From positions 1,514 to 65,513 of the forward strand of contig CAZKAT010000003.1 of assembly GCA_964551135.1 (NCBI GenBank): 64,000 nt of DNA. The letters are read 5' to 3'. Origin of the DNA: an uncultured Gammaproteobacteria bacterium (lineage in GTDB: Bacteria; Cyanobacteriota; Vampirovibrionia; LMEP-6097). The translations under genes and the position numbers were made by a program. Below, piece after piece: positions 2,135-16,888 of the stretch (position 1 is its first letter; each line of letters begins with the position of its first letter). Under the pieces are notes generated by a model. That model was not told the DNA's origin. It searched no databases and saw nothing but the letters and a program-made list of their open reading frames with translations.

Positions 2135-4513
2135 ATGAGCTTTTCCGTCAGTTCTAAATTATTATCCAAGGTTCTAGTAGAAGAAGAAAACCTAGATATC
2201 CCTTTGGTTTTGGGGAAGTTCTTAGATGAATTACAGGATAAAGTATTCTGTGAGCAAGCATTTATAATCGATAAAAACCAAGGTAAGGTTTTCACTTGCT
2301 CTAATATCAGTCCAGCAGACATAAGTTGTTCAGGACAAGGTATTGAAAAATACCTTATCGAAGACTGGGGCTACTTATATGTAGTTAAAGCTGCTAAGAA
2401 AGAAGATGCTAGGTTTTGGGATGAAGTTACTGGATCTCTGTCACTGTTCTTACATAGCGCTGAACTTAAAATTCATACTCACCTCATTAGTAATCTCACT
2501 TCTGATATAAGACGCACTCTAAGACCGGATCTAGCATTAGAGAAGATGTATCAAGCATTGAAAGAATATGCTCAATTAAGTGGTTTTTATTTCTTCAAGA
2601 AACTCATTAACACTGATGATCATGAAAATATTTTCAAAGGATATAGTCTTTATTTTAAAGCTACTCATGATGACCTTAGTAAATTTAGCGAAGAGAGAAT
2701 TTTTAACTTAGATGAGATCAAAGAATTAGGATTCATAAGTAATGATTTAGAGATAGAAGTATTCCAATCTAAGGTTAGAGGCAGAGAATGGGGTATTTTA
2801 GTTGCTACGCGCCAAGAGCCTTGGACACCGGATTTGATCGAGACTTTCGAATTATTCTCAGAGCAAATGGCAAGTGTATTTAATCAACACGAGCTACACT
2901 CAGAGAGCTTAACCATGGCACAACGAGAATTCTTGCTGAACCAGATCACCACTAAGATCAGAGAGTCATTAGTTGTCGATAAAATTATCGAAACTGCAGT
3001 CGCAGAGATAGGACAAGTAATGGGAGTAGAATCCTGCGGTATCGTAGTGCTTAATCGTAAGATCAGAGGTAGCATTGGTCACCAAACTTGGTCTATAGAA
3101 GATGATTTCTCTTCTAAGATGACAGATGCTATTTATAGTACGCTGAGAACCGAATTAGAACCCAATTGGCTAGAGCCTTCTATTCAAGCGCCACGAGGAT
3201 TTCAAGATGGTGAAGAAACAGGAACTAATGGCTGGCAATCTATATCAAGCTTAGGTTTACAATCATATCTATGTTGTGGTTTATTCAGAGACAATACTAG
3301 AGAATTAATCGGTATCCTAGCAGTAGGATTCTTCAATCAAGTACGTAACTGGACTCACGATGAACAGTTACTACTAGAGGGTGTCGCCAAACAATTAGAG
3401 ATAGCACTTATTCAAGCTTCTATCTATCAAGAAGCTCAGCAAACCAAACGCCAAATGGCACTCCTACACAGGCTTAGCAGTGATATCAGAGACAGCTTAG
3501 ATATATCTATAGTATTAGGGCAGATTGCAAGTGGCATTGGTGAAGTATTAGGACTTAACAGATGCTTCGTAAGAAGATTCTCCAATGACTCTAATGTAAT
3601 TAAGACTGAAGAAGAATATTGCTCTAAGGGCTTTGATCCAAGTGCTGATATGATGTTTAATTTCGAGCGAGAGTGGATAACTGAGCTAGCTTCAGGTGAT
3701 AGCGCGCTTAAAGCTGTGGAAGTTCTCAATATAGCTTCAGTGGCATCCAAGCTCAGTGAAGAAAGTCCAGAACTCTTAAAGATAGCTGAGGCTATTCAGC
3801 TTAAAAGTTACCTTTCTATACCCCTAGTAGCACGTGGTAAGATCCTTGGCTCAATCATAGTTCACCAGTGTGATAGAGAACGAAACTTCCTGCCCGAAGA
3901 GATAGAGTTTATATTCAGAGTTGGATCTGAAGCTGCTATCGCTATCGAGCATGCTGAGTTGTTTGATACTATAAATAAATTTAATAAGACCGATCCTGAT
4001 ACTGGACTCTATAATAAACGTTATTTTAGAGAAATAGCAATGCAAGAAATTGCTAAAGCACAAAAAAACTCCAATCCTATATCTTTCATGTTAGTCGACG
4101 TAGACTACCTTAAAGAAATCAATGATGATCCAGATCATGGTGGACACGAAGCAGGTGACGAAGCGATTCAGATACTTGCTACCGTACTCACTAACACCGT
4201 CAGGCAGACTCCTGTAGATGAAGTTAGCAAGCGCATCTCTGATGTAGTTGGAAGATTTGGTGGTGATGAGTTTATGATACTCTTGCCTAATACTCCACTA
4301 GAAGGTGCAGCCACTGTCGCCAAGCGTATTGCAGAGCACTTAGCTAAGGCTAAACATAGTACTTGGAAACGAGCTCTCACTTGCAGCATTGGGATTTCTT
4401 CTGCTCCACATGATCCTTATGACTACGAGCAACTTAAGACCCTTGCCGATAAAGCTCTCTATCTCTCTAAGCATAAGGGTAGAAATGGGTTTAGTATTAC
4501 GACTGAGTTGTAA
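2135..4513 (+). CDS. GAF-domain diguanylate cyclase (GGDEF)
   Basis: 792 aa; C-terminal RFGGDEFMILLPNT GGDEF signature; long N-terminal region consistent with tandem GAF-type sensor domains. Confidence 0.8.
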   Translation: MSFSVSSKLLSKVLVEEENLDIPLVLGKFLDELQDKVFCEQAFIIDKNQGKVFTCSNISPADISCSGQGIEKYLIEDWGYLYVVKAAKKEDARFWDEVTGSLSLFLHSAELKIHTHLISNLTSDIRRTLRPDLALEKMYQALKEYAQLSGFYFFKKLINTDDHENIFKGYSLYFKATHDDLSKFSEERIFNLDEIKELGFISNDLEIEVFQSKVRGREWGILVATRQEPWTPDLIETFELFSEQMASVFNQHELHSESLTMAQREFLLNQITTKIRESLVVDKIIETAVAEIGQVMGVESCGIVVLNRKIRGSIGHQTWSIEDDFSSKMTDAIYSTLRTELEPNWLEPSIQAPRGFQDGEETGTNGWQSISSLGLQSYLCCGLFRDNTRELIGILAVGFFNQVRNWTHDEQLLLEGVAKQLEIALIQASIYQEAQQTKRQMALLHRLSSDIRDSLDISIVLGQIASGIGEVLGLNRCFVRRFSNDSNVIKTEEEYCSKGFDPSADMMFNFEREWITELASGDSALKAVEVLNIASVASKLSEESPELLKIAEAIQLKSYLSIPLVARGKILGSIIVHQCDRERNFLPEEIEFIFRVGSEAAIAIEHAELFDTINKFNKTDPDTGLYNKRYFREIAMQEIAKAQKNSNPISFMLVDVDYLKEINDDPDHGGHEAGDEAIQILATVLTNTVRQTPVDEVSKRISDVVGRFGGDEFMILLPNTPLEGAATVAKRIAEHLAKAKHSTWKRALTCSIGISSAPHDPYDYEQLKTLADKALYLSKHKGRNGFSITTEL

Positions 4514-5618: not shown

Positions 5619-6876
5619 TAAGATCAGTGGTGAGCAGAGCTGGGCTATAGTCTCGTCATTGCGAGGAGATGATAAATTAACTCATCGTCATATAGAAATC
5701 TCATGGATACAAGATGGCGAGAATAAAATAGATCAAGTACTAATTCTTCCTTTCAAAGCACCATATAGTTATACAGGCGAAGATCTAATAGAAATCCATT
5801 CTCATGGTGGCATGTGGATTACCGAGAGAATTTTAAAATTAATTTTAGAAGCAGGAGCTAAGCTAGCTAAGCCTGGGGAGTTCACTGAGAGAGCGTTTCT
5901 AAATCACAAGCTAGATCTATCACAAGCAGAAGCGATCTTAGATATAATTCAAGCGCGCAGCGGTAAGGCTGGCGAAAATGCAATTAAACTTTATCAAGGT
6001 TATTTAGGCAATGCGATTAAAGAGATGCGCCTAACATTACTAAATCTCTTAGGAGAACTTACTGCTTGCATAGACTTCCCAGATGAGGTTGCTGACTACG
6101 ATATAGAGAAATATCAAAAACAAATAGCTAAACAAATACAAAAGATCGAAGAATTACTTGCAGGTGAAGAAGAGGGGCATATACTACGCGAAGGTTACAA
6201 AGTAGCAATAGTAGGTAATCCAAATACTGGTAAATCTACCTTGCTCAATACTCTACTGAAAAAAGAGCGAGCAATAGTTACAGATATACCAGGGACTACT
6301 AGAGATCTAATTGAAGAATCTTATAGTATTAAGGGTCTACCACTGATTCTTCTAGATACTGCAGGAATTCGCAATAGCTCAGACCGCGTAGAACAGATCG
6401 GCATGGAACGCAGTCAGAGAGCCATAGAAGAAGCAGATCTAGTTTTAGTTCTCAAAGAAGCGCAAGACTCAAGTCCTAATACTCAAGGCTCATTATTAGA
6501 TGTAAGTTTCAAATCTAAAAATCATTTAGTGATAGGAACCAAGTTAGATTTATATTCAAATGACAATCATAATGGCTTTGATATTTGTATTTCTTCTAAG
6601 ACTGGAACTAATATAGAAGAGCTTAAGGAATTAATATACTCACGTATCATACATGGCAGTAGCCAAAATCAAGTAAAGATTAATCACAGGCAAGCTGATC
6701 TGTTGCGTAAAGCTCAAGCTGCACTAGAGCACTCTATGAGCTCAACTCACTTAGCAATAGACTTCTGGACTATAGACCTGCGCGCTGCTATCGCTGCACT
6801 CGGTGAGATTACTGGTGAGTCGTTGACAGAAGAATTACTCGACAATATCTTCTCGAGGTTTTGTATTGGGAAATAA
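5563..6876 (+). CDS. mnmE: tRNA modification GTPase MnmE (TrmE)
   Basis: 437 aa; N-terminal TIAAIITAPGNAAVSIIKISG, G-domain P-loop GNPNTGKSTLLN and DTAGIR, C-terminal CIGK tetrapeptide typical of MnmE; GTG start. Confidence 0.9.
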   Translation: MSTIAAIITAPGNAAVSIIKISGEQSWAIVSSLRGDDKLTHRHIEISWIQDGENKIDQVLILPFKAPYSYTGEDLIEIHSHGGMWITERILKLILEAGAKLAKPGEFTERAFLNHKLDLSQAEAILDIIQARSGKAGENAIKLYQGYLGNAIKEMRLTLLNLLGELTACIDFPDEVADYDIEKYQKQIAKQIQKIEELLAGEEEGHILREGYKVAIVGNPNTGKSTLLNTLLKKERAIVTDIPGTTRDLIEESYSIKGLPLILLDTAGIRNSSDRVEQIGMERSQRAIEEADLVLVLKEAQDSSPNTQGSLLDVSFKSKNHLVIGTKLDLYSNDNHNGFDICISSKTGTNIEELKELIYSRIIHGSSQNQVKINHRQADLLRKAQAALEHSMSSTHLAIDFWTIDLRAAIAALGEITGESLTEELLDNIFSRFCIGK

Positions 6877-7449
6877 TAAAGCAACTTCTCTCATAAATTT
6901 ATCTACAAATGTAGCTATTGTTGGTATTCCTTGATTTAATCCCAATACAGAAGTATTTCTCTTCCTTGCATGAAAAGCAGAAGCTCTGTCTCTTATAACT
7001 TGATCCAGAGGATCAGTAGGATTAACTTTTGGAAATAACAGTTGATTTCGTATCGCCCAATCTCCAACAGTAAAATTTGGACTAATTTTCACAATAGCAA
7101 ATCTGTCAGTAGCTTTATATAAAGTTTCAAGAAGTTTATGATAAGTCTGAGACCAATCAGCACGTCTTCCTCCTCCAGTATTTTCTACTGCTTCCTCATC
7201 AACAAAAACTAAAACTGGTGTATTTTTATCTTCTGACATATTTTGCCAAAAATTCCTATTCTCATCGAAGTAAGAAGTTTGAGTACTAGAACCTCTAGAA
7301 TAAACTACTTGATCTTGTCCTAAATTACGAATAGCATTATCAAACCAACCTGCTAATGCGGAATCAGAGAAAACAGCTATTCTCGGTGTCGCTGCTGTTG
7401 GCTTGAATTCTTTTGTTGATTCTGTTGTAATAGGTGCTGTTATAGTCAT
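6835..7449 (-). CDS. Hypothetical protein (possible SGNH/GDSL-like hydrolase fold)
   Basis: 204 aa; IAVFSDSALAG weakly resembles SGNH block I; other blocks not convincing. Convergent with mnmE, overlapping its 3' end by 42 nt. Confidence 0.3.
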   Translation of the reverse strand: MTITAPITTESTKEFKPTAATPRIAVFSDSALAGWFDNAIRNLGQDQVVYSRGSSTQTSYFDENRNFWQNMSEDKNTPVLVFVDEEAVENTGGGRRADWSQTYHKLLETLYKATDRFAIVKISPNFTVGDWAIRNQLLFPKVNPTDPLDQVIRDRASAFHARKRNTSVLGLNQGIPTIATFVDKFMREVALLFPNTKPREDIVE

Positions 7450-7485
7450 AATAAGATATTATATAATATTTCTTATCTAAATAAA

Positions 7486-7977
7486 ATGTCTATATGTAAT
7501 AATAACTGGAAAATGAACGATAGTAAACCAGAATTCTCAATTAAAAATATCGGTGATGCCAAACTTGCAATCATAGTCGCTAGCTGGAATAAACAATTCA
7601 ACATGGAGATGTACGAATCTGGACGCGAAGTTCTTGAGAAAGCAGGAATAAAAAAAATTGATCTTTACGAAGCACCAGGTGCTTTTGAAATACCATTAAT
7701 CGCACAAAAACTTGCTGAGAGTGGTAAATATACTGGCATTATTTGTTACGGCACAGTAGTTCGCGGTGATACTAGACATTTTAAGATAGTGGCTGATGAA
7801 AGTGCACGAGGAGTAATGGATGTAATGCTAAAAACTGGCATACCTGTACTTAACGGTATACTTGCCTGCGAAAACGCTGGACAAGCGGAATTCAGAGCTT
7901 CACGCAAGAAAGAAGACAAGGGTAAGGAAGTTGCGCTTTCGGCATTAAGTTTACTTAGTACTTTAGCCTCATTATAA
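7486..7977 (+). CDS. ribH: 6,7-dimethyl-8-ribityllumazine synthase
   Basis: 163 aa; AKLAIIVASWN and APGAFEIPL motifs typical of lumazine synthase; size matches. Confidence 0.8.
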   Translation: MSICNNNWKMNDSKPEFSIKNIGDAKLAIIVASWNKQFNMEMYESGREVLEKAGIKKIDLYEAPGAFEIPLIAQKLAESGKYTGIICYGTVVRGDTRHFKIVADESARGVMDVMLKTGIPVLNGILACENAGQAEFRASRKKEDKGKEVALSALSLLSTLASL

Positions 7978-9124: not shown

Positions 9125-10768
9125 CTACCTATTTCTATCTATCGCGACTTTAACCAGGTCTAGATCAACATTAGTCATGATCTCAACTCTACCAATACTG
9201 GCTTTAGGGACAATAAATCTAGCCTTACCGTCTTCAACTTTTTTATCATATTTAAATGAATTAATTATATCTTTGGATTTAATATCTTCAGGCACTTTAT
9301 AAGTAAGTCCCAGTTGCTCCATTAAAGCTATTACCGCTTGAGTGTATTTAGACTTAAAGCAATTCAATTCTTCACCTAAGTAACATGCACAAATTACTCC
9401 AATAGCCACAGCTTCACCATGTGAATATCTCTTATAACCTGTAAGCTCTTCTATTGCATGCCCAAAAGTATGCCCCAGATTGAGATGCGCTCTGATGCCT
9501 TTCTCAGTCTCATCTTCAGCAACTACTCCAGCTTTAATTTTAAGACAATGATCTATCACTTCAGTAAGTACATCATGATCTCTATTATTAATCTGATCTA
9601 CATGACCTCGTACATATTCAAAAAAACTATCGCCAATAATATGATCCCATTGCATACCAAGTAAAGTATATTTCACGAGTTCACCTAAACCACATTTATA
9701 TTCTCTATCAGGTAAACTCTTGAGACAATTAACATCTATATGCACTAGATGCGGTTGATAAAAAGTACCAACTAAATTCTTGCCTTCAGGTACATTGATA
9801 GCAGTCTTACCACCTACAGAAGAATCAATCATAGAGAGCAATGTAGTAGGAACCTGCACATAATTAATACCTCGATAATAAGTTGAAGCAGCAAAACCCA
9901 CAGTATCACCAACAACGCCACCACCTAAAGCAAGTAAAGTATCCTTACGTTCGAATTTTAAAGCAAGGAGCTTTTGAATAATCAATTGATAAGTGAAAAA
10001 ATTCTTGGATTCTTCACCATCATCAATGATCATACTAGAGACCTTATATGACTCGCTTATGAGTTGATCTTTAAGCGTCTTAAGATAGTGCTTAGCGATT
10101 GGCTCCTGAGTCACAATGAAAACTTGCGAGCCAGGCTTAATAGTACTGAGATTTATTTTCTCTAGATCTTTATAGACAACCTTATAATCAGAATCAATTC
10201 TAGGAATCTTTATTTCAAGCTCTTGTATTTTAGGTTTACGTAAACCCAATGACTTAATGATTTCTAGGGCAATAACACTGATAGATTTATCAGTAGTGTC
10301 AATCTTAATATGACTATCCATATATGCTGGCTTACGCTCTTCCCATAGCTCCTCAAGAGTAGCTAATTGATCCTTACCCTTCAGTAAAGGACGATTCTTG
10401 CGGCGTTTAACACGATCATAGAGATCTGCCGGATCTGCGATTAAAGCAATCAAATGAGAACCCTTCTTAATAAGCTTACGGTTCTCATCATCAATAATGG
10501 CGCCACCACCAAGTGAAATGACCTGATTATCAACTTCAAGGACTTCTCTTACTAATTCTTTCTCTAGCTTACGAAAATATTTCTCACCATGTTCTTTAAA
10601 TATTTCATTGATAGTCGAACCTTCACGTGCTTCAATAAGGGCATCAGTATCTACGAAGTCTTTTTTCAATAAATACGCCAAATGACGGCCTATTGATGAC
10701 TTACCGCAGCCCATTAGGCCAGTAAGACTAATATTCTCATTATGATTCTTTAACTTAAGCTTAACCAT
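9125..10768 (-). CDS. aroKB: Bifunctional shikimate kinase / 3-dehydroquinate synthase (AroK-AroB fusion)
   Basis: 547 aa; N-terminal P-loop LMGCGKSSIGRHLA (shikimate kinase) followed by the dehydroquinate synthase region GGGVVGDTVGFAASTYYRGINYVQVPTTLLSMIDSSVGGKTAIN and HGEAVAIG. Confidence 0.85.
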   Translation of the reverse strand: MVKLKLKNHNENISLTGLMGCGKSSIGRHLAYLLKKDFVDTDALIEAREGSTINEIFKEHGEKYFRKLEKELVREVLEVDNQVISLGGGAIIDDENRKLIKKGSHLIALIADPADLYDRVKRRKNRPLLKGKDQLATLEELWEERKPAYMDSHIKIDTTDKSISVIALEIIKSLGLRKPKIQELEIKIPRIDSDYKVVYKDLEKINLSTIKPGSQVFIVTQEPIAKHYLKTLKDQLISESYKVSSMIIDDGEESKNFFTYQLIIQKLLALKFERKDTLLALGGGVVGDTVGFAASTYYRGINYVQVPTTLLSMIDSSVGGKTAINVPEGKNLVGTFYQPHLVHIDVNCLKSLPDREYKCGLGELVKYTLLGMQWDHIIGDSFFEYVRGHVDQINNRDHDVLTEVIDHCLKIKAGVVAEDETEKGIRAHLNLGHTFGHAIEELTGYKRYSHGEAVAIGVICACYLGEELNCFKSKYTQAVIALMEQLGLTYKVPEDIKSKDIINSFKYDKKVEDGKARFIVPKASIGRVEIMTNVDLDLVKVAIDRNR

Positions 10769-10940
10769 AGTTACTGTTGATTAATTGTGACATAAATTCA
10801 GGATTCTCATTTACCTGACTAGGGTTTTCGTACTAGACTAAAAGTTGAATTTTGCCAAATTGACTGCAGAGAATGCTCAGCTATCCGATAAACACATATA
10901 TAGCAATAGCAGATTTCATTAAGATTAGGAGAGAATAGCA

Positions 10941-11852
10941 ATGTTAGAACTCAACGCAGCAACCAAAAAAACACTTTTTACACTAGGCGTCGGTGCCTTT
11001 GGTAAGATGTCTGAATTAATTAAGGACACTGACTATCTCCCACAAAAGCCAGCATATTTATTTAAACTGCTAAGAATGGCATATTCCGTTGATATCAAAA
11101 ACAACGATATGGCACAAGAATTAACTAAAGACAAGGATGCAGTTGCACAAGTTCTCAATATTCCTTCTTTAAAAGATAACTATAATAGTATCGATCAAGA
11201 AGATATTGCTAATGCTATTTCTAATCTAGAAAGATCTTTTATTCAAAGTTCACTTGAAGTAGATTTTGCAAAAAAATATCATAGTGCTCTTGCTGATAGA
11301 TTAAATAATGATGCACAAAAAACTAAACTTAATCTTGCTCTTAAATCAGCTGTAATAGCTAAGTCTATTGCTAGATGGGTTGACTATCAGGATAAAGAAG
11401 TTGCATTCTTTGCTGCTTTACTTTCAGACTTACCTGCACAAGTGCTAAGTATTAATGATCCAGAATCACAAGAAAAAATAGATGACAAAATCAGCAAAGG
11501 TATGAGCGAAAAAGAAGCTGAAATGATAGTTCTTGGTTTTGATCATGCTGAGTTTGGAGCTAAATTACTTAAGTATTATTCAATGCCATCACCGGTAGTT
11601 GATTTAATACAAAATGATTTTAAAGCAGATAGAGTTAAACCTAAGAATGAGCAATTAGCTAAGATAGTTAACTTCTCTAAATTCTTAGCTAAATGTTTCT
11701 CTGATAGAACACAAACTCCTTCTAGCATTTGGCTTGAATCACAAAAATCCATTCAAAGTTTAGGATTAAATCTAAGCTCTGAGGAATGGGGTAATAAAAT
11801 TAGTCTTATGTTTGTTAAGGCTATCGAGTTTGAAATGTCTGTAACTGGTTAA
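10941..11852 (+). CDS. HDOD domain-containing signalling protein (degenerate)
   Basis: 303 aa; LGFDHAEFGAKLLKYYSMPSPVVDLIQ resembles the HDOD core (G-DH-E-G-LL--W-LP); the canonical HD residues appear degenerate. Confidence 0.5.
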   Translation: MLELNAATKKTLFTLGVGAFGKMSELIKDTDYLPQKPAYLFKLLRMAYSVDIKNNDMAQELTKDKDAVAQVLNIPSLKDNYNSIDQEDIANAISNLERSFIQSSLEVDFAKKYHSALADRLNNDAQKTKLNLALKSAVIAKSIARWVDYQDKEVAFFAALLSDLPAQVLSINDPESQEKIDDKISKGMSEKEAEMIVLGFDHAEFGAKLLKYYSMPSPVVDLIQNDFKADRVKPKNEQLAKIVNFSKFLAKCFSDRTQTPSSIWLESQKSIQSLGLNLSSEEWGNKISLMFVKAIEFEMSVTG

Positions 11853-11871
11853 TAGTGCTAAAATACGCCTT

Positions 11872-13311
11872 ATGGCAGTATTTTCCCAAGCTTCTAACTT
11901 ACATGATATTCACTTCGGTACCGATGGATGGCGAGCATTAATCGCTAAAGAGTTTACCTATAAAAACCTCAATATTTTCTTAGATGGATTAGCTAATTAT
12001 ATCCTTGAGAACTATGGCACCGATAAACCTTTAGTCATCAGTTATGACGCTAGATTTCTAGCCGATAAATTTGCGAAGTTTGCTTCTGAGATCATTAATT
12101 CTTGGGGCATTGATACTTTATGTACTGATCATCCTATACCGACACCAGTCGTAGCCTTTGCTGCTAAAGAATATAATTCATGCGGTGCTATAACCTTCAC
12201 TGCTAGTCATAACCCACCTGAGTACATGGGTATCAAATATATTCCAGAATACGCTGGTCCAGCTTCTAAAGCAATCACCGATGAAATCCTAGAACAAATA
12301 GAACTGGCTGCTCAAGGTGAACTAGTTAAGAGTGGTAAACAAGGTTCTAGCAGTGTCATCAATCCTAGAGAAGCTTATTTCGCTAAGATCAGAACCTTAG
12401 TAAACTTCGACGCTATCAAAGCAGCTAATCAAAAATCTAAAACTAAACTAATCTATGACCCGCTCTACGGCTGTGGTCGCAATTACACTAATAGATTATT
12501 AGAAGAAGCTGGTTTTCAAGTAGAAACCTTACACGATATTCATGATCCGACTTTCGGTGGTTCTATGCCAGATCCGAAAGAAAGCATATTACAAGAATTA
12601 AAAGCACGCATCATTAGTACTGGAGCTAATCTGGGAGCTGCTAATGATGGAGACTCTGATAGATTTGCATTTATGGATGAAGTAGGGAATTTTTATCCTG
12701 CTAATAAATCATTGCCAATTATTCTTAAATACTTAATTGAGAACCGTGGTTACAAGGGAGTGGTAGCGCGTACTGTAGCCACTACTCACTTACTAGATGA
12801 TGTAGCACATAAGCATGGATTTAATGTGATCGAAACAGCAGTAGGTTTCAAATGGCTTTGTGAAATCATGCGCAGAGAACCAACAATACTATGTGCTGAA
12901 GAATCAGGCGGTATGAGCATACTGGGACACATCCCAGAGAAGGATGGCATACTTGCTATCTTACTTATGGCAGAAGTTTTAGCTATCACTGGCAAGAAAC
13001 TTTCTCAATTATGGACAGAGGTACAGGAGTTTGTTGGTAAAAATTATTTTTATGATAGTTTAAATCTACACCTAGAAGGTGATGCTAAACAAGCTTTCAT
13101 GGATAAGTTTAATGATCCAAATCTAAAAGAAATCGCTAGCTTTAAAGTTCTTAATGTCGACAAGACTGAAGGTGTGAAGATCTATTTAGAACAAGGTACT
13201 TGGTTACTAGCCCGTCCTAGTGGTACAGAAGCCATGTGCAGAGTATATTTCGAGGGCAATGATAAGGCTATTCTAGATACTGTGGTTAAAGCAGTAAGTA
13301 ATATGATTTAA
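11872..13311 (+). CDS. Alpha-D-phosphohexomutase family enzyme (phosphoglucomutase/phosphomannomutase-like)
   Basis: 479 aa; GTDGWRALI N-terminus, catalytic-serine loop TASHNPPEYMG, metal-binding GANDGDSDR and sugar-binding EESGG motifs. Confidence 0.8.
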   Translation: MAVFSQASNLHDIHFGTDGWRALIAKEFTYKNLNIFLDGLANYILENYGTDKPLVISYDARFLADKFAKFASEIINSWGIDTLCTDHPIPTPVVAFAAKEYNSCGAITFTASHNPPEYMGIKYIPEYAGPASKAITDEILEQIELAAQGELVKSGKQGSSSVINPREAYFAKIRTLVNFDAIKAANQKSKTKLIYDPLYGCGRNYTNRLLEEAGFQVETLHDIHDPTFGGSMPDPKESILQELKARIISTGANLGAANDGDSDRFAFMDEVGNFYPANKSLPIILKYLIENRGYKGVVARTVATTHLLDDVAHKHGFNVIETAVGFKWLCEIMRREPTILCAEESGGMSILGHIPEKDGILAILLMAEVLAITGKKLSQLWTEVQEFVGKNYFYDSLNLHLEGDAKQAFMDKFNDPNLKEIASFKVLNVDKTEGVKIYLEQGTWLLARPSGTEAMCRVYFEGNDKAILDTVVKAVSNMI

Positions 13312-13326
13312 CTGGACAACTAAAAA

Positions 13327-13611
13327 ATGGACTGGAAAGATTTAAAAATTACCAGATATTTTCAAGAGCAGGTCTTAAAGAAGAGACCTTATTTAAAGCC
13401 AGAGTGGTGCTTAGCTCTTATGAAGGATAAAAGATACAGCGAAATACAAGAAGATGGTAGAATTCGTTTATGGGGTTATATTGAAGAAGAGAATAAATAT
13501 CTTCGATTGGTTCTGTTAGAAGACGGTCAAACTGTACATAATGCGTTTTTTGATAGAGATTTTAATGAGAAGGAGATGAACTATGAAGTTCCGTTATTAC
13601 CAAGAGACTGA
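13327..13611 (+). CDS. DUF4258-like small protein (putative toxin of a type II TA pair)
   Basis: 94 aa; pattern DGRIRLWGY...YLRLVLLEDGQTVHNAFFDRD matches the DUF4258 core; overlaps the downstream DUF2283-like ORF by 29 nt. Confidence 0.45.
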   Translation: MDWKDLKITRYFQEQVLKKRPYLKPEWCLALMKDKRYSEIQEDGRIRLWGYIEEENKYLRLVLLEDGQTVHNAFFDRDFNEKEMNYEVPLLPRD

Positions 13612-13813
13612 TTCACTGTATATAGACTTAGCTTTAAAAACAAGTTCAGAATCCATCGAAATCTCACCCGGCATAGTTGTTGACTATGATAAAGAAGGGG
13701 ATATCGTAGGTATCGATATAGATCAAGCTAGTACAAAAGTTGACATGTCTATTCTTGAAGCCGACTCACTACCATTTGGAAATTTATCAATTAAAAAAGA
13801 TACTGATGCTTAA
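13583..13813 (+). CDS. DUF2283-like small protein (putative antitoxin)
   Basis: 76 aa; MKFRYYQETDSLYIDL...GIVVDYDKEGDIVGIDID matches the DUF2283 consensus (MKIxYDxExDxLYI ... DxDxxGxIVGIEI). Confidence 0.55.
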   Translation: MKFRYYQETDSLYIDLALKTSSESIEISPGIVVDYDKEGDIVGIDIDQASTKVDMSILEADSLPFGNLSIKKDTDA

Positions 13814-14993
13814 GACTTCTAACTCAATTCTCAACAAAGCCCTAGAAGGCAAGTGCATTAGCGAAGCTGAGGCTGTAGAACTTTTCTATAAAGCTTCACC
13901 ACTAGATCTAGCTTATACCGCTAACGTATTGCGTGAGCGCAAACACGCTAACACTGAACCAACTACTTATGTAGTACAGCGCAATATTAATTACTCAAAT
14001 GTCTGCACTGCTAATTGCACTTTCTGTGCCTTTTATACACCACCATCTGATCCTAACCCTAAAAATCCCGCTTATGTTTTAGATTACGAAACACAAATGA
14101 AACCCAAGATAGAAGAATTAATCGCTATCAACGGCACAGAGATCTTACTACAAGGCGGTCACAATCCAGCTCTTGGCGTAGAATACTATACAGATTTATT
14201 CCAAAGAATTAAGCAAGATTTTCCTGGTATTACACTTCACGCTCTAAGTCCAGCAGAGATAATTCATATCACTGAGAAGAGAATTACTCCTGCAGAAGAT
14301 TATGGTGATGGTACTAATCGCAAGAGTATTAAAGCTCCTAATATGCAAGAGGTGAAAGAAACTTTACTCGCGCTTAAAGCAGCTGGCATGGATTCACTAC
14401 CAGGAGCAGGTGCTGAAGTATTAGTAGAATCTGTACGTAAGATTATTGCTCCGCTGAAGATTACTACTGAAACTTGGCTCAATGTTATGGAAACCGCTCA
14501 CAGTATAGGATTCCGTTCATCTGCAACTATGATGTACGGGCATGTGGAAACTTACGAAGATAGAGTAGAGCATTTCAGAACCTTGCGTGAATTACAAGAT
14601 CGTACTCACGGGTTCACGGCTTTCGTTACTTGGAACTTTCAACGCGGCGACACTCCGCTCGGTAAAATCATGGACTCAATGGAGAAACAAGGTAAATTGC
14701 CTGCTTATAACTCAAACTCTGGCGGCGAAGATTATTTACGTACTACTGCTATCGCTAGAATCTACTTAGATAATTTCGAGAATTTTCAAGCAAGCTGGGT
14801 AACTCAGGGGCATCAATTAGGACAAGTATCTCTTGCGTTTGGATGTAATGATTTAGGCGGTAATATGATGGAAGAGAACGTAGTCTCGGCTGCTAACACC
14901 ACTCATAAAGCCAGTGTTAATGAAATGCGCTACTATATTGAGGCTGCTGGCAAGCAAGCTCATCAGCGAGATACGCAGTATAATTTAGTTTGA
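13806..14993 (+). CDS. Radical SAM enzyme of the MqnC/MqnE/CofH family (probable futalosine-pathway menaquinone biosynthesis)
   Basis: CX3CX2C radical SAM motif (CTANCTFC); ILLQGGHNP, MMYGHVET...HGFTAFVTWNFQ and GCNDLGGNMMEENVVSAA blocks typical of this family. Start placed at ATG 13806 (MLKTSN...), which overlaps the upstream stop by 8 nt; the track start 13740 would overlap the upstream gene by 74 nt. Confidence 0.65.
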   Translation: MLKTSNSILNKALEGKCISEAEAVELFYKASPLDLAYTANVLRERKHANTEPTTYVVQRNINYSNVCTANCTFCAFYTPPSDPNPKNPAYVLDYETQMKPKIEELIAINGTEILLQGGHNPALGVEYYTDLFQRIKQDFPGITLHALSPAEIIHITEKRITPAEDYGDGTNRKSIKAPNMQEVKETLLALKAAGMDSLPGAGAEVLVESVRKIIAPLKITTETWLNVMETAHSIGFRSSATMMYGHVETYEDRVEHFRTLRELQDRTHGFTAFVTWNFQRGDTPLGKIMDSMEKQGKLPAYNSNSGGEDYLRTTAIARIYLDNFENFQASWVTQGHQLGQVSLAFGCNDLGGNMMEENVVSAANTTHKASVNEMRYYIEAAGKQAHQRDTQYNLV

Positions 14994-14994
14994 T

Positions 14995-16086
14995 ATGTAC
15001 CAAGGCACCATTCTTAAATATTCCGAGTACCTTTCTGTTGATAATCGCACACCGATTATTAGCATTAACGAAGGTCAGACTCCACTAGTACCAGCGCCGC
15101 ATATTGCCAAGCTCACTAGCGTACCAGGTCTGAAGGTTTATCTCAAAATAGAAGGACTCAATCCTACTGGTTCTTTTAAAGATCGTGGTATGACCATGGC
15201 TGTTTCTAAAGCTGTAGAAAAAGGTGCTAAGCGTATCATCTGTGCTAGCACTGGCAACACTTCCGCTTCAGCAGCAGCTTACGCAGCACGCGCTAGGGGA
15301 TTAGGTTACGAGCTAGATTGCTATGTGATTATTCCTGCAGGTTACGTTGCACTCGGCAAACTTTCTCAGGCAATGATTTATGGAGCGAAAGTTATACAGA
15401 TAGAAGGTAACTTCGATGCTGCTCTGAATATAGTAAAAGATCTTTCTAGTAACTATCCTATAGAGCTAGTGAACTCTATTAACCCTTATCGTATAGAAGG
15501 ACAGAAAACATCTGCTTATGAAATCTGTGACGAACTAGAAGCAGCTCCTGACTATCTCTGCATCCCCGTAGGTAATGCTGGTAACATTACCGCTTATTGG
15601 GCAGGTTTCAAGGACTATATCAAGAACCCAACAGCAAGACCTAAGATGTATGGCTTCCAAGCAGAAGGTGCAGCGCCAATAGTGAAAGGTCATATTATCG
15701 ATAAACCTGAAACAGTTGGAACAGCAATCCGCATCGGCAATCCAGCTAGCTGGAAACAAGCTGAAGCTGCGCGTGATGAATCTCAAGGACTTATAGACTC
15801 TGTTACTGATGATGAGATGCTTGAAGCTTACCGCATTATCCATGCTTCAGAAGGTTATGCTTGCGAACCTGCTTCTGCAGCGAGTGTCGCAGGTCTACTC
15901 AAAGCCGCTCGTCAAGGCAAGATCATTCCTGAATCTACCGTAGTCTGTGTGCTTACTGGTAACGGACTTAAAGATCCTAAGACTGCAATAGATCAGTCAG
16001 ATTTCAAATCAGCAGAGATAGTTTATAAAGCAGATATAAATGAGATAGCAAAAGCGCTATCGTTAGGTTCAGCATTGAAAGCTTAA
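14995..16086 (+). CDS. thrC: Threonine synthase
   Basis: 363 aa; PLP-lysine motif GSFKDRGMT and overall beta-family PLP enzyme layout matching threonine synthase. Confidence 0.85.
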   Translation: MYQGTILKYSEYLSVDNRTPIISINEGQTPLVPAPHIAKLTSVPGLKVYLKIEGLNPTGSFKDRGMTMAVSKAVEKGAKRIICASTGNTSASAAAYAARARGLGYELDCYVIIPAGYVALGKLSQAMIYGAKVIQIEGNFDAALNIVKDLSSNYPIELVNSINPYRIEGQKTSAYEICDELEAAPDYLCIPVGNAGNITAYWAGFKDYIKNPTARPKMYGFQAEGAAPIVKGHIIDKPETVGTAIRIGNPASWKQAEAARDESQGLIDSVTDDEMLEAYRIIHASEGYACEPASAASVAGLLKAARQGKIIPESTVVCVLTGNGLKDPKTAIDQSDFKSAEIVYKADINEIAKALSLGSALKA

Positions 16087-16090
16087 TCTT

Positions 16091-16888
16091 TTAAAACAGC
16101 AATAAAAATATTGCCAAAACCACCCGGTAGACAATAAAGCCCATTAAATTGTGGTTTTTGAGGAATTTGATCATGAAATCTATAGCTAAATAGCCAACAA
16201 TAAAACTTGTTATAAATCCCAAAAATAAGGGAATAATACTAGAATCAGAGTTTAATCCACCTTCAGCTAAATCTTTTAGTGCTAATAATCCTGCGCCGGC
16301 CACTGCAGGCAAACCTACCAAAAACGAAAATCTTGCAGCAGAGTCTCTACTTAGACCAGTAAATAAACCTGCAGATATAGTTGATCCAGAACGTGATACT
16401 CCTGGGAAAAGTGCAAGTGTTTGCATTAGACCCACGAAAAATATTTCTTTAATTGATAGATCTTCTATAGGCTTGTGTTCTTGACGCTTCTTAGTAAAAG
16501 CATCAGCACAGTACATCAAGACTGAACCGAGTAATAGAGTTATAACTATAGACATAGTAGACCTAATCATCTCAGATCCCCAGAACGCCTTGAAGCCAAA
16601 ACCAATAGCTATCACTGGTATAGTCGCTATCAAAATACCGATAGCAAGTTTACGTTCTGTAGGATTGTTAGAGATGAAACTCTTAAACATCACCAATACT
16701 TCCTTACGAAAATAAATTAGCGTTGCTGCAAGAGTTCCTAAATGCAAGAAAGCATCTACATCTAAGCCTGGGTCACAAAAGCCACAAAGCTTAGGAGCTA
16801 TTACTAAGTGAGCCGAGCTACTAATAGGTAAGAATTCTGTGAGTCCTTGGATAACAGCAAGTATAATTATTTCAATATATTTTTCCAT
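16091..16888 (-). CDS. uppP: Undecaprenyl-diphosphate phosphatase
   Basis: 265 aa polytopic membrane protein; N-terminal GLTEFLPISSSAHL motif characteristic of UppP/BacA. Confidence 0.85.
   Translation of the reverse strand: MEKYIEIIILAVIQGLTEFLPISSSAHLVIAPKLCGFCDPGLDVDAFLHLGTLAATLIYFRKEVLVMFKSFISNNPTERKLAIGILIATIPVIAIGFGFKAFWGSEMIRSTMSIVITLLLGSVLMYCADAFTKKRQEHKPIEDLSIKEIFFVGLMQTLALFPGVSRSGSTISAGLFTGLSRDSAARFSFLVGLPAVAGAGLLALKDLAEGGLNSDSSIIPLFLGFITSFIVGYLAIDFMIKFLKNHNLMGFIVYRVVLAIFLLLF

Follow-up and report, generated by a model that had tools for sequence, protein, structure and literature searches.

A DUF2283 gene and a gene of an unannotated, predicted colicin-like BECR-fold family form a candidate toxin-antitoxin pair inherited between pgm and mqnC in a Melainabacteria-related genome

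Introduction

Small toxins of the BECR fold held in check by a small protein antidote are a well-known kind of toxin-antitoxin (TA) system, and the locus considered here, positions 13,327 to 13,813 of a 64,000-nucleotide stretch of metagenomic DNA (GenBank assembly GCA_964551135.1, contig CAZKAT010000003.1, positions 1,514 to 65,513 of the forward strand; this whole stretch is called the window below), would join them without changing the concept. It consists of two overlapping open reading frames (ORFs), ORF1 and ORF2. One close system is the proposed TA pair of Synechocystis formed by slr1421, a DUF4258 gene, and ncr1610-sORF1, which encodes 71 aa; the slr1421 stop overlaps the ncr1610-sORF1 start, the 71-aa protein is conserved in cyanobacteria, Pseudomonadota and Chloroflexota, and the proposal is computational, save that production of the small protein has been proven (bioRxiv 10.64898/2025.12.20.695498). 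It is by size and arrangement alone that we liken ORF1 and ORF2 to this pair. DUF4258 is functionally uncharacterised, and the only review that we found to list it states that nothing is known about it. The family (PF14076, overlapping Ntox49) has been placed in the colicin-like group of BECR ribonucleases, a group composed of a pre-alpha helix, an alpha helix and strands beta1-beta4, with an active site that runs along the pre-alpha helix and beta4 and usually includes a conserved His with nearby Arg or Lys; its characterised members cut mostly tRNA (bioRxiv 10.64898/2026.08.28.747851). Our literature search found no paper naming both DUF4258 and DUF2283; their association is already visible in databases. 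Other systems to which the locus may be likened are the toxin-first BECR TA pairs BrnT/BrnA of Brucella abortus (PF04365), HigB/HigA and MqsR/MqsA, together with the CdiA-CT tRNase toxins of K. pneumoniae 342, E. coli NC101 and E. coli O32:H37 and colicin D, each considered with its immunity protein.

The window is matched identically by a 288-kb metagenome contig (ENA ERZ3430527); among named genomes, metagenome-assembled genomes (MAGs) of Candidatus Melainabacteria are the closest to it. An earlier reading of the sequence, called here the original prediction, took the two ORFs for a DUF4258-like/DUF2283-like type II TA module inserted between metabolic genes. We consider it probable that the two genes are a type II TA-type pair with the toxin gene first, in which ORF1 is a colicin-like BECR toxin, likely an endoribonuclease, neutralised by binding of the DUF2283 protein, and that the pair is vertically inherited and non-mobile in this lineage.

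Results and discussion

Two overlapping genes and the identity of ORF2

ORF1 (13327..13611, + strand, ATG to TGA, 94 aa) precedes ORF2 (13583..13813, + strand, ATG to TAA, 76 aa), and the 3' end of the one shares 29 nt with the 5' end of the other (13583..13611, + strand, read from the sequence), so that the coordinates, lengths and overlap of the original prediction are exact. The ORF1 start codon lies 15 nt beyond the stop codon of pgm, and these 15 nt hold no Shine-Dalgarno sequence comparable to that of ORF2, an AAGGAG at 13570..13575 (+ strand), which is situated within ORF1, 7 nt ahead of the ORF2 ATG as read from the sequence. GGAGG-like sites are found in the same place upstream of the DUF2283 start across the 80 genome loci described in the next section.

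ORF2, the putative antitoxin gene, encodes a DUF2283 (YuzE-like) protein. This assignment, made originally from the sequence alone, is borne out by hidden Markov model (HMM) search, in which ORF2 scores 59.5 bits with PF10049 (cut-off 23, E 3.6e-16), its residues 2-50 aligning to profile positions 1-49 of 49; all 46 of the 46 aligned ORF2 homologues match DUF2283 as well. The structural model of ORF2 has a five-stranded beta core (residues 2-47), then a short helix and then a C-terminal tail, which is conserved (LExxxLP, with P64 invariant in alignment A4) and over which the model confidence drops (pLDDT 79 over residues 61-70 and 60 over 71-76). The transcriptional activator family of FseA/QseM is, as we take it, DUF2285; the naming of DUF2283 for this family in PMC4755241 was disregarded as a probable misprint. 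A comparison of the DUF2283 profile with the Protein Data Bank (PDB) returned a weak match to residues 12-57 of 3bu2_A (E 0.037), in the N-terminal domain of a protein from Staphylococcus described as a 'putative tRNA-binding protein', with DsLYidL...VvDyd..G.iVGIdI..AS as the aligned core of DUF2283. This may be a chance match or may hint at a DUF2283 fold in RNA-associated proteins, and we judge it insufficient.

ORF1 is never found without DUF2283, and DUF2283 often without ORF1

Genome loci were seeded by the peptide pattern HNAFFDRx[FY] on one-genome-per-species contigs; at least 556 were confirmed, and 80 were kept for analysis. Directly downstream of ORF1 and on the same strand there is a DUF2283 gene in 80/80 of these loci, overlapping ORF1 by 4 nt (ATGA) in 57/80, by 1 nt in 5/80 and by 11 nt in 2/80, and the two proteins rise and fall together in pairwise identity (r=0.79, 76 loci). 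The pairing of these adjacent, co-oriented small genes is thus conserved over unrelated genomes, and no neighbour other than DUF2283 is conserved around ORF1 across the 80 loci. Genes for HicB-like antitoxins (7 loci) and restriction-modification-like genes recur near the pairs, as do PIN, HigBA-like and MNT/HEPN genes; one pair is carried by a Rhodothermus plasmid. The overall distribution is patchy and extends over Melainabacteria, Armatimonadota, Alphaproteobacteria, Acidobacteriota, Chloroflexota, Myxococcota, Actinomycetota, Aquificota, Nitrospirota, Planctomycetota, Gemmatimonadota and other groups, with one archaeal MAG (Methanosarcinales). A phage origin of the pair was considered and rejected, as 50,697 phage genomes gave no match and IMG/VR a single one.

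The picture differs when metagenome loci are seeded from DUF2283. An ORF1-family gene lies upstream in 63 of the 78 assessable loci, and 15/78 are without an intact ORF1; two of these 15 hold a degraded ORF1 (a frameshift in L160 and a remnant in L128), and the remaining 13 are orphan DUF2283 genes. ORF1 without DUF2283 (0/80) versus DUF2283 without intact ORF1 (15/78) is an asymmetry (Fisher p=1.2e-5) of the kind expected for an antidote-dependent toxin: the presumed toxin gene never occurs without its partner, and both orphan antitoxin genes and inactivated toxin genes occur. Two of the genome loci have nonsense codons at residues that the family holds invariant, W49 (L052) and Q41 (L058), and in these two, as in the frameshifted L160, DUF2283 is intact. 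Invariable pairing, translational coupling, varied genomic context, orphan antitoxins but no orphan toxins, and toxin pseudogenes together uphold the proposal of a TA-type pair. The asymmetry and the nonsense codons, taken with the repeated deletion of ORF1 described below, make what we regard as the first reasonably strong, if computational, argument for DUF2283 as an antidote.

Orphan DUF2283 loci such as L100, L108 and L109 sit among PIN, HicA, HigBA-like and AbrB-like genes. Judged by sequence motifs only, the orphan in L108 (419-928) is directly 3' of an AbrB/MazE-like antitoxin gene, itself preceded by HicA, and that in L109 (202-1064) is directly 3' of a VapB-like and PIN pair; at these places DUF2283 may have been recruited to other toxins, or the loci may merely be TA islands. 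L173 (474-1982) and L174 each carry three DUF2283 genes in 1.5 kb, two of them lacking an upstream partner.

ORF1 belongs to a large unannotated family that shares its partner with DUF4258

A word-indexed search found 138 homologues of ORF1, and among the 120 matches listed none has a precomputed Pfam domain. An exhaustive search with a profile of the family returned 1823 cluster representatives (50% identity) at E<=1e-3, of which 806 reach E<=1e-10. The typical member is about 78 aa long, with the consensus MKTTxYFxxxVLxxRPYIKxEW...IQEDGRIRxWG...KYLRVVLLEDGxTVHNAFFDRxF; in window numbering W27, Q41, W49, L59, D66, H71, N72, A73 and D76 are invariant, and R20, R45, R60 and R77 are at least 90% conserved. 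ORF1 of the window retains all invariant and nearly invariant residues and has in addition two extensions specific to its clade, an N-terminal MDWKDLK and a C-terminal tail, EKEMNYEVPLLPRD. Since homologues of ORF1 and ORF2 are conserved in hundreds of genomes and dN/dS values (given below) are low, spurious ORFs can be ruled out. Searches with ORF1 came back empty against Pfam (E<=10), NCBIfam, PADLOC and PDB, the last both by phmmer and by family profile; matches to a phage portal protein (E 0.13) and to CobW (E 0.018) were taken as noise. On the Rhodothermus plasmid, RefSeq annotates the ORF1 member as 'hypothetical protein' beside a 'DUF2283 domain-containing protein'.

The original prediction assigned ORF1 to DUF4258, and this assignment holds for the predicted fold and for the genetic partner but not for the Pfam family. 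ORF1 has no match to the PF14076 HMM (gathering score 25 bits) even at E<=10. Over 48 aligned family members, DUF4258 is the only recurrent Pfam family at this threshold, with 6/48 matches, all of them sub-threshold and colinear, and the other 42/48 have none; the best E is 2.4e-4, and protein P0049 reaches 21.4 bits, its residues 8-63 aligning to positions 3-61 of the 71 in the profile. An hhalign comparison of the ORF1-family alignment with an alignment of one DUF4258 subfamily gave a probability of 0.1, this subfamily being narrow (72-91% identity) and the sensitivity low. The two families have in common the size class of about 80-90 aa and the predicted colicin-like BECR topology, and DUF4258 pairs with DUF2283 in the toxin-first order and with a stop/start overlap just as ORF1 does. 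They differ at the N-terminus, where the DUF4258 subfamily has His-x3-R-x2-ERG and the ORF1 family T-x-YF...RPY, and in the invariant TVHNAFFDR strand, which is the ORF1 family's own. We therefore regard 'DUF4258-like' as correct at the level of superfamily and partner, a remote relation, with ORF1 outside PF14076 as defined.

The claimed co-occurrence of DUF4258 with DUF2283 is itself confirmed. At one locus (L021) a DUF4258 gene (3258-3527, Pfam E 1.4e-5) overlaps its own DUF2283 gene (3524-3739) in the toxin-first order, and three more proteins of the DUF4258 subfamily related to it, two with weak PF14076 matches and one (P0489) with none, have DUF2283 directly downstream in 7/7 places (L173-L179), in TA-rich islands. 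The ORF1 family thus appears from sequence comparison to be a large, unannotated sister family sharing its DUF2283 partner with DUF4258, and this is the novel element here. Its members form at least 1800 clusters (50% identity), spread over many bacterial phyla and reaching at least one archaeal MAG. Missing from Pfam, NCBIfam and PADLOC, it would be an absent branch in current censuses of RelE/ParE/BECR toxins, which depend on Pfam families.

In L021 the DUF4258 and DUF2283 pair stands immediately upstream of an ORF1-family and DUF2283 pair, in tandem (3258-4458). L175 (446-1798) has apparently the same tandem, the 82-aa upstream gene there being without a Pfam match. In L179 (92-1770) a DUF4258 and DUF2283 pair begins 2 nt after a folC-like (Mur_ligase) gene, an arrangement that may be compared with that after pgm in the window.

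ORF1 is predicted to adopt a colicin-like BECR fold

An AlphaFold2 model of ORF1, computed on the family alignment, has a pLDDT of 88.5, with helices at residues 10-19 and 25-33 and strands at 37-40, 46-52, 57-63 and 70-75; confidence is low over the C-terminal tail that is specific to the clade. The predicted topology, pre-alpha, alpha and beta1-beta4, agrees with the definition of the colicin-like BECR group. In the model the invariant His71-Asn72 falls on beta4, and T9, Y11, F12 and R20 on or beside the pre-alpha helix. The closest structures are toxins without exception: a Salmonella TA toxin (7vd7_A, score 7.1), BrnT (3u97, 6.6), the CdiA-CT domains of K. pneumoniae 342 (6cp9, 6.2), E. 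coli O32:H37 (8ey4, 5.9) and E. coli NC101 (5i4q, 5.8), colicin D (5znm_B, 5.3) and RelE1 (9g12_B, 5.0). Because Foldseek found no significant match of the model in PDB, we regard the structural evidence for the fold as moderate, not strong.

Vertical inheritance in a conserved gene string and repeated loss of ORF1

The pair lies in a string, HDOD-pgm-[ORF1]-DUF2283-mqnC-thrC-bacA, that is conserved in related MAGs. Upstream is pgm (11872..13311, + strand), encoding a phosphogluco/phosphomannomutase (PGM) with PGM_PMM domains I-IV, and downstream is mqnC (13806..14993, + strand), encoding a CofH/MqnC-family radical SAM protein; both serve as syntenic anchors outside the module. The pair occupies the same pgm-mqnC site even in relatives whose proteins are only about 70% identical, and its divergence keeps pace with that of pgm, mqnC and thrC. 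Thus, the relative L089 has an ORF1 with 70.2% aa identity to that of the window, next to 70.3% for PGM and 77.6% for DUF2283. The ratio of nonsynonymous to synonymous substitution rates (dN/dS) among syntenic relatives is 0.08-0.14 for the module genes, close to that of the flanking genes; the value for ORF1 against its 70%-identical orthologue in L089, 0.08, indicates that ORF1 of the window is under purifying selection as a protein. The G+C content of the module (34%) is close to that of the window (36%). A shared site, co-divergence and genome-like G+C argue that the pair was present in the common ancestor and was inherited vertically. On these grounds a recent horizontal insertion at this locus is rejected, and the insertion into a metabolic context which the original prediction had suggested is not supported.

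ORF1 has been lost along this lineage. It is absent from L083 and L084, the closest relative, and from L085-L087, where tblastn returns nothing at E<=10, and it is kept by the more distant L088-L090; the most parsimonious explanation is that the gene was lost independently at least twice. DUF2283 is intact in the genomes without ORF1, with an aa identity to the window of 92.1% in L083 (PGM 92.7%) and of 68.5% in L085 (PGM 76.9%), and with dN/dS values of 0.10 (window versus L083) and 0.12 (L083 versus L085), which speak for purifying selection. Its retention fits the rule that a toxin can go and the antidote cannot go first, and is also compatible with DUF2283 having a role of its own. The syntenic series of pair present, toxin deleted and toxin replaced by an inverted-repeat element amounts to a natural experiment in how a TA pair decays and its antitoxin is retained.

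The element in question fills the gap between pgm and DUF2283 in L083 (5832-5957; GCA_964512985.1, CAZELI010000021.1), in the place of ORF1. It is G+C-rich, 126 bp long, and has 26-nt inverted ends that are 85% complementary, TACCCGTTCGCCGTCATCGCGAGGAG / CTCCTCGCAATGACGGATTACGGGTA; it resembles a miniature inverted-repeat element. There is no copy of it in the window (0 matches, allowing up to 3 mismatches).

A consensus scan, which may not fit the promoter type of this host, found no sigma-70-like promoter and no terminator at the module boundaries. The sole promoter-like match nearby is a weak one inside ORF2 (13680-13707), and over 10700-16300 there are 6 such matches against 18 expected. 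Given the empty boundaries, the module seems to share a transcript with the genes around it. The mqnC start overlaps the ORF2 stop by 8 nt (13806..13813, + strand, ATGCTTAA), in line with the overlap originally noted between the radical SAM gene and the DUF2283 stop.

A model of the pair and its alternatives

We propose that ORF1 would be a small stand-alone cytoplasmic endoribonuclease of colicin-like BECR fold, in a family just outside Pfam DUF4258. In the structural model its active site would comprise His71 and Asn72 on beta4, the last strand, together with the conserved R20, R45, R60 and R77. By analogy with the structural neighbours, tRNA would be the likeliest class of substrate, and this is the least certain step of the model. 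ORF2 would be produced in excess over ORF1, a ratio suggested by its strong Shine-Dalgarno sequence and its translational coupling to ORF1, and would bind ORF1 directly and mask the active-site face, probably through its conserved C-terminal tail, the part for which the model has reduced confidence. The pair would be carried vertically in the pgm-ORF1-ORF2-mqnC-thrC string and seemingly transcribed with it. Gene structure, the family of ORF2, obligate pairing, purifying selection and the asymmetric loss of ORF1 support a TA pair, and the modelled fold of ORF1 points the same way; from these we infer toxicity, RNase chemistry, substrate, neutralisation by binding and the excess of ORF2. The obligate partnership would give DUF2283 a concrete role, as putative antitoxin of DUF4258-type and related toxins. 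Two features weigh against this model. The textbook type II antitoxin autoregulates its own promoter, a typical if not universal trait, and the DUF2283 protein is all-beta and matches no DNA-binding family of Pfam; and the 15-nt gap between pgm and ORF1 holds no consensus sigma-70-like promoter of the module's own.

An alternative is a domesticated, non-toxic module that would serve the pgm-mqnC-thrC operon, or translation at large, in place of addiction or defence; ORF1 would then bind or process RNA, with DUF2283 as its partner or regulator. Vertical descent at one locus in step with pgm, mqnC and thrC, purifying dN/dS, genome-like G+C, the lack of consensus sigma-70-like promoter or terminator at the boundaries, the coupling to mqnC and the continued selection on DUF2283 after the loss of ORF1 would all suit such a module. 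However, outside this clade the pair is found in unrelated contexts, often among TA or restriction-modification genes; ORF1 is dispensable, having been lost at least twice in close relatives and struck by nonsense mutations elsewhere; it never occurs without DUF2283; and its closest structures are all toxins. On this balance we consider domestication unlikely.

Equally unlikely in our estimate is a wider role for DUF2283, either as a generic immunity protein against BECR RNases (an 'anti-addiction' or anti-toxin shield) or as a protein co-opted for a cellular role linked to the mqnC operon. Its retention after at least two losses of ORF1, its pairing with at least two BECR families (DUF4258 and the ORF1 family) and its frequent occurrence as an orphan or in tandem suggest this reading. 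Were it true, the ORF1 family would be a previously unrecognised and very widespread clade of tRNase-type toxins.

Somewhat less probable again is that the pair of this particular genome is a decaying or neutralised remnant, with ORF1 inactive, kept only by its embedding in the operon, and no TA activity left. ORF1 of the window clade is indeed atypical, with its N-terminal extension, its low-confidence C-terminal read-through tail and a 29-nt overlap versus the usual 4 nt, and sister genomes have lost the gene entirely; against this, it has every invariant and nearly invariant residue of the family, and its dN/dS to the L089 orthologue is 0.08. Reversed roles, with DUF2283 as the toxic or effector component and ORF1 as antitoxin or regulator, would follow the gene order of many type II systems, in which the antitoxin gene is upstream, and the antitoxin/toxin order that Gerdes lists for DUF4258, but are very improbable, since intact lone DUF2283 genes in L083-L087 and at about 13/78 metagenome loci would be lethal for a toxin without its antidote, ORF1 alone occurs in 0/80, and both the toxin-like BECR fold and the nonsense mutations belong to ORF1, not DUF2283.

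Other genes of the string

Ahead of pgm lies a gene for an HDOD-domain protein (10941-11852), a member of the conserved string in every relative examined. The mqnC start is taken here as the ATG at 13806, from the gene caller on the public contig L001, where the gene occupies 6480-7667 (window 13806-14993); the mechanical ORF list places the radical-SAM start at a TTG at 13740 instead. The best match of the product is MqnC of the futalosine pathway. It just misses the MqnC equivalog TIGR03699 (406.9 bits, cut-off 428.1) and passes the CofH-family subfamily TIGR00423, so that MqnC seems the best name, though one unsecured by the NCBIfam threshold.

Some relatives carry further genes in the string. 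In L083 and L084 (7459-8188 in both) a nucleotidyltransferase/HepT-like pair of the MNT-HEPN type is inserted between mqnC and thrC, with none in the window; the string can thus hold another small module of TA type, whose presence varies among close relatives. One relative only, seen in L085 (9588-10754) and L086 (5146-6312), has a Fic/Fic_N gene that separates bacA from trmD. In L085 there is also a 62-aa antisense ORF between DUF2283 and mqnC, where the window has the 8-nt overlap.
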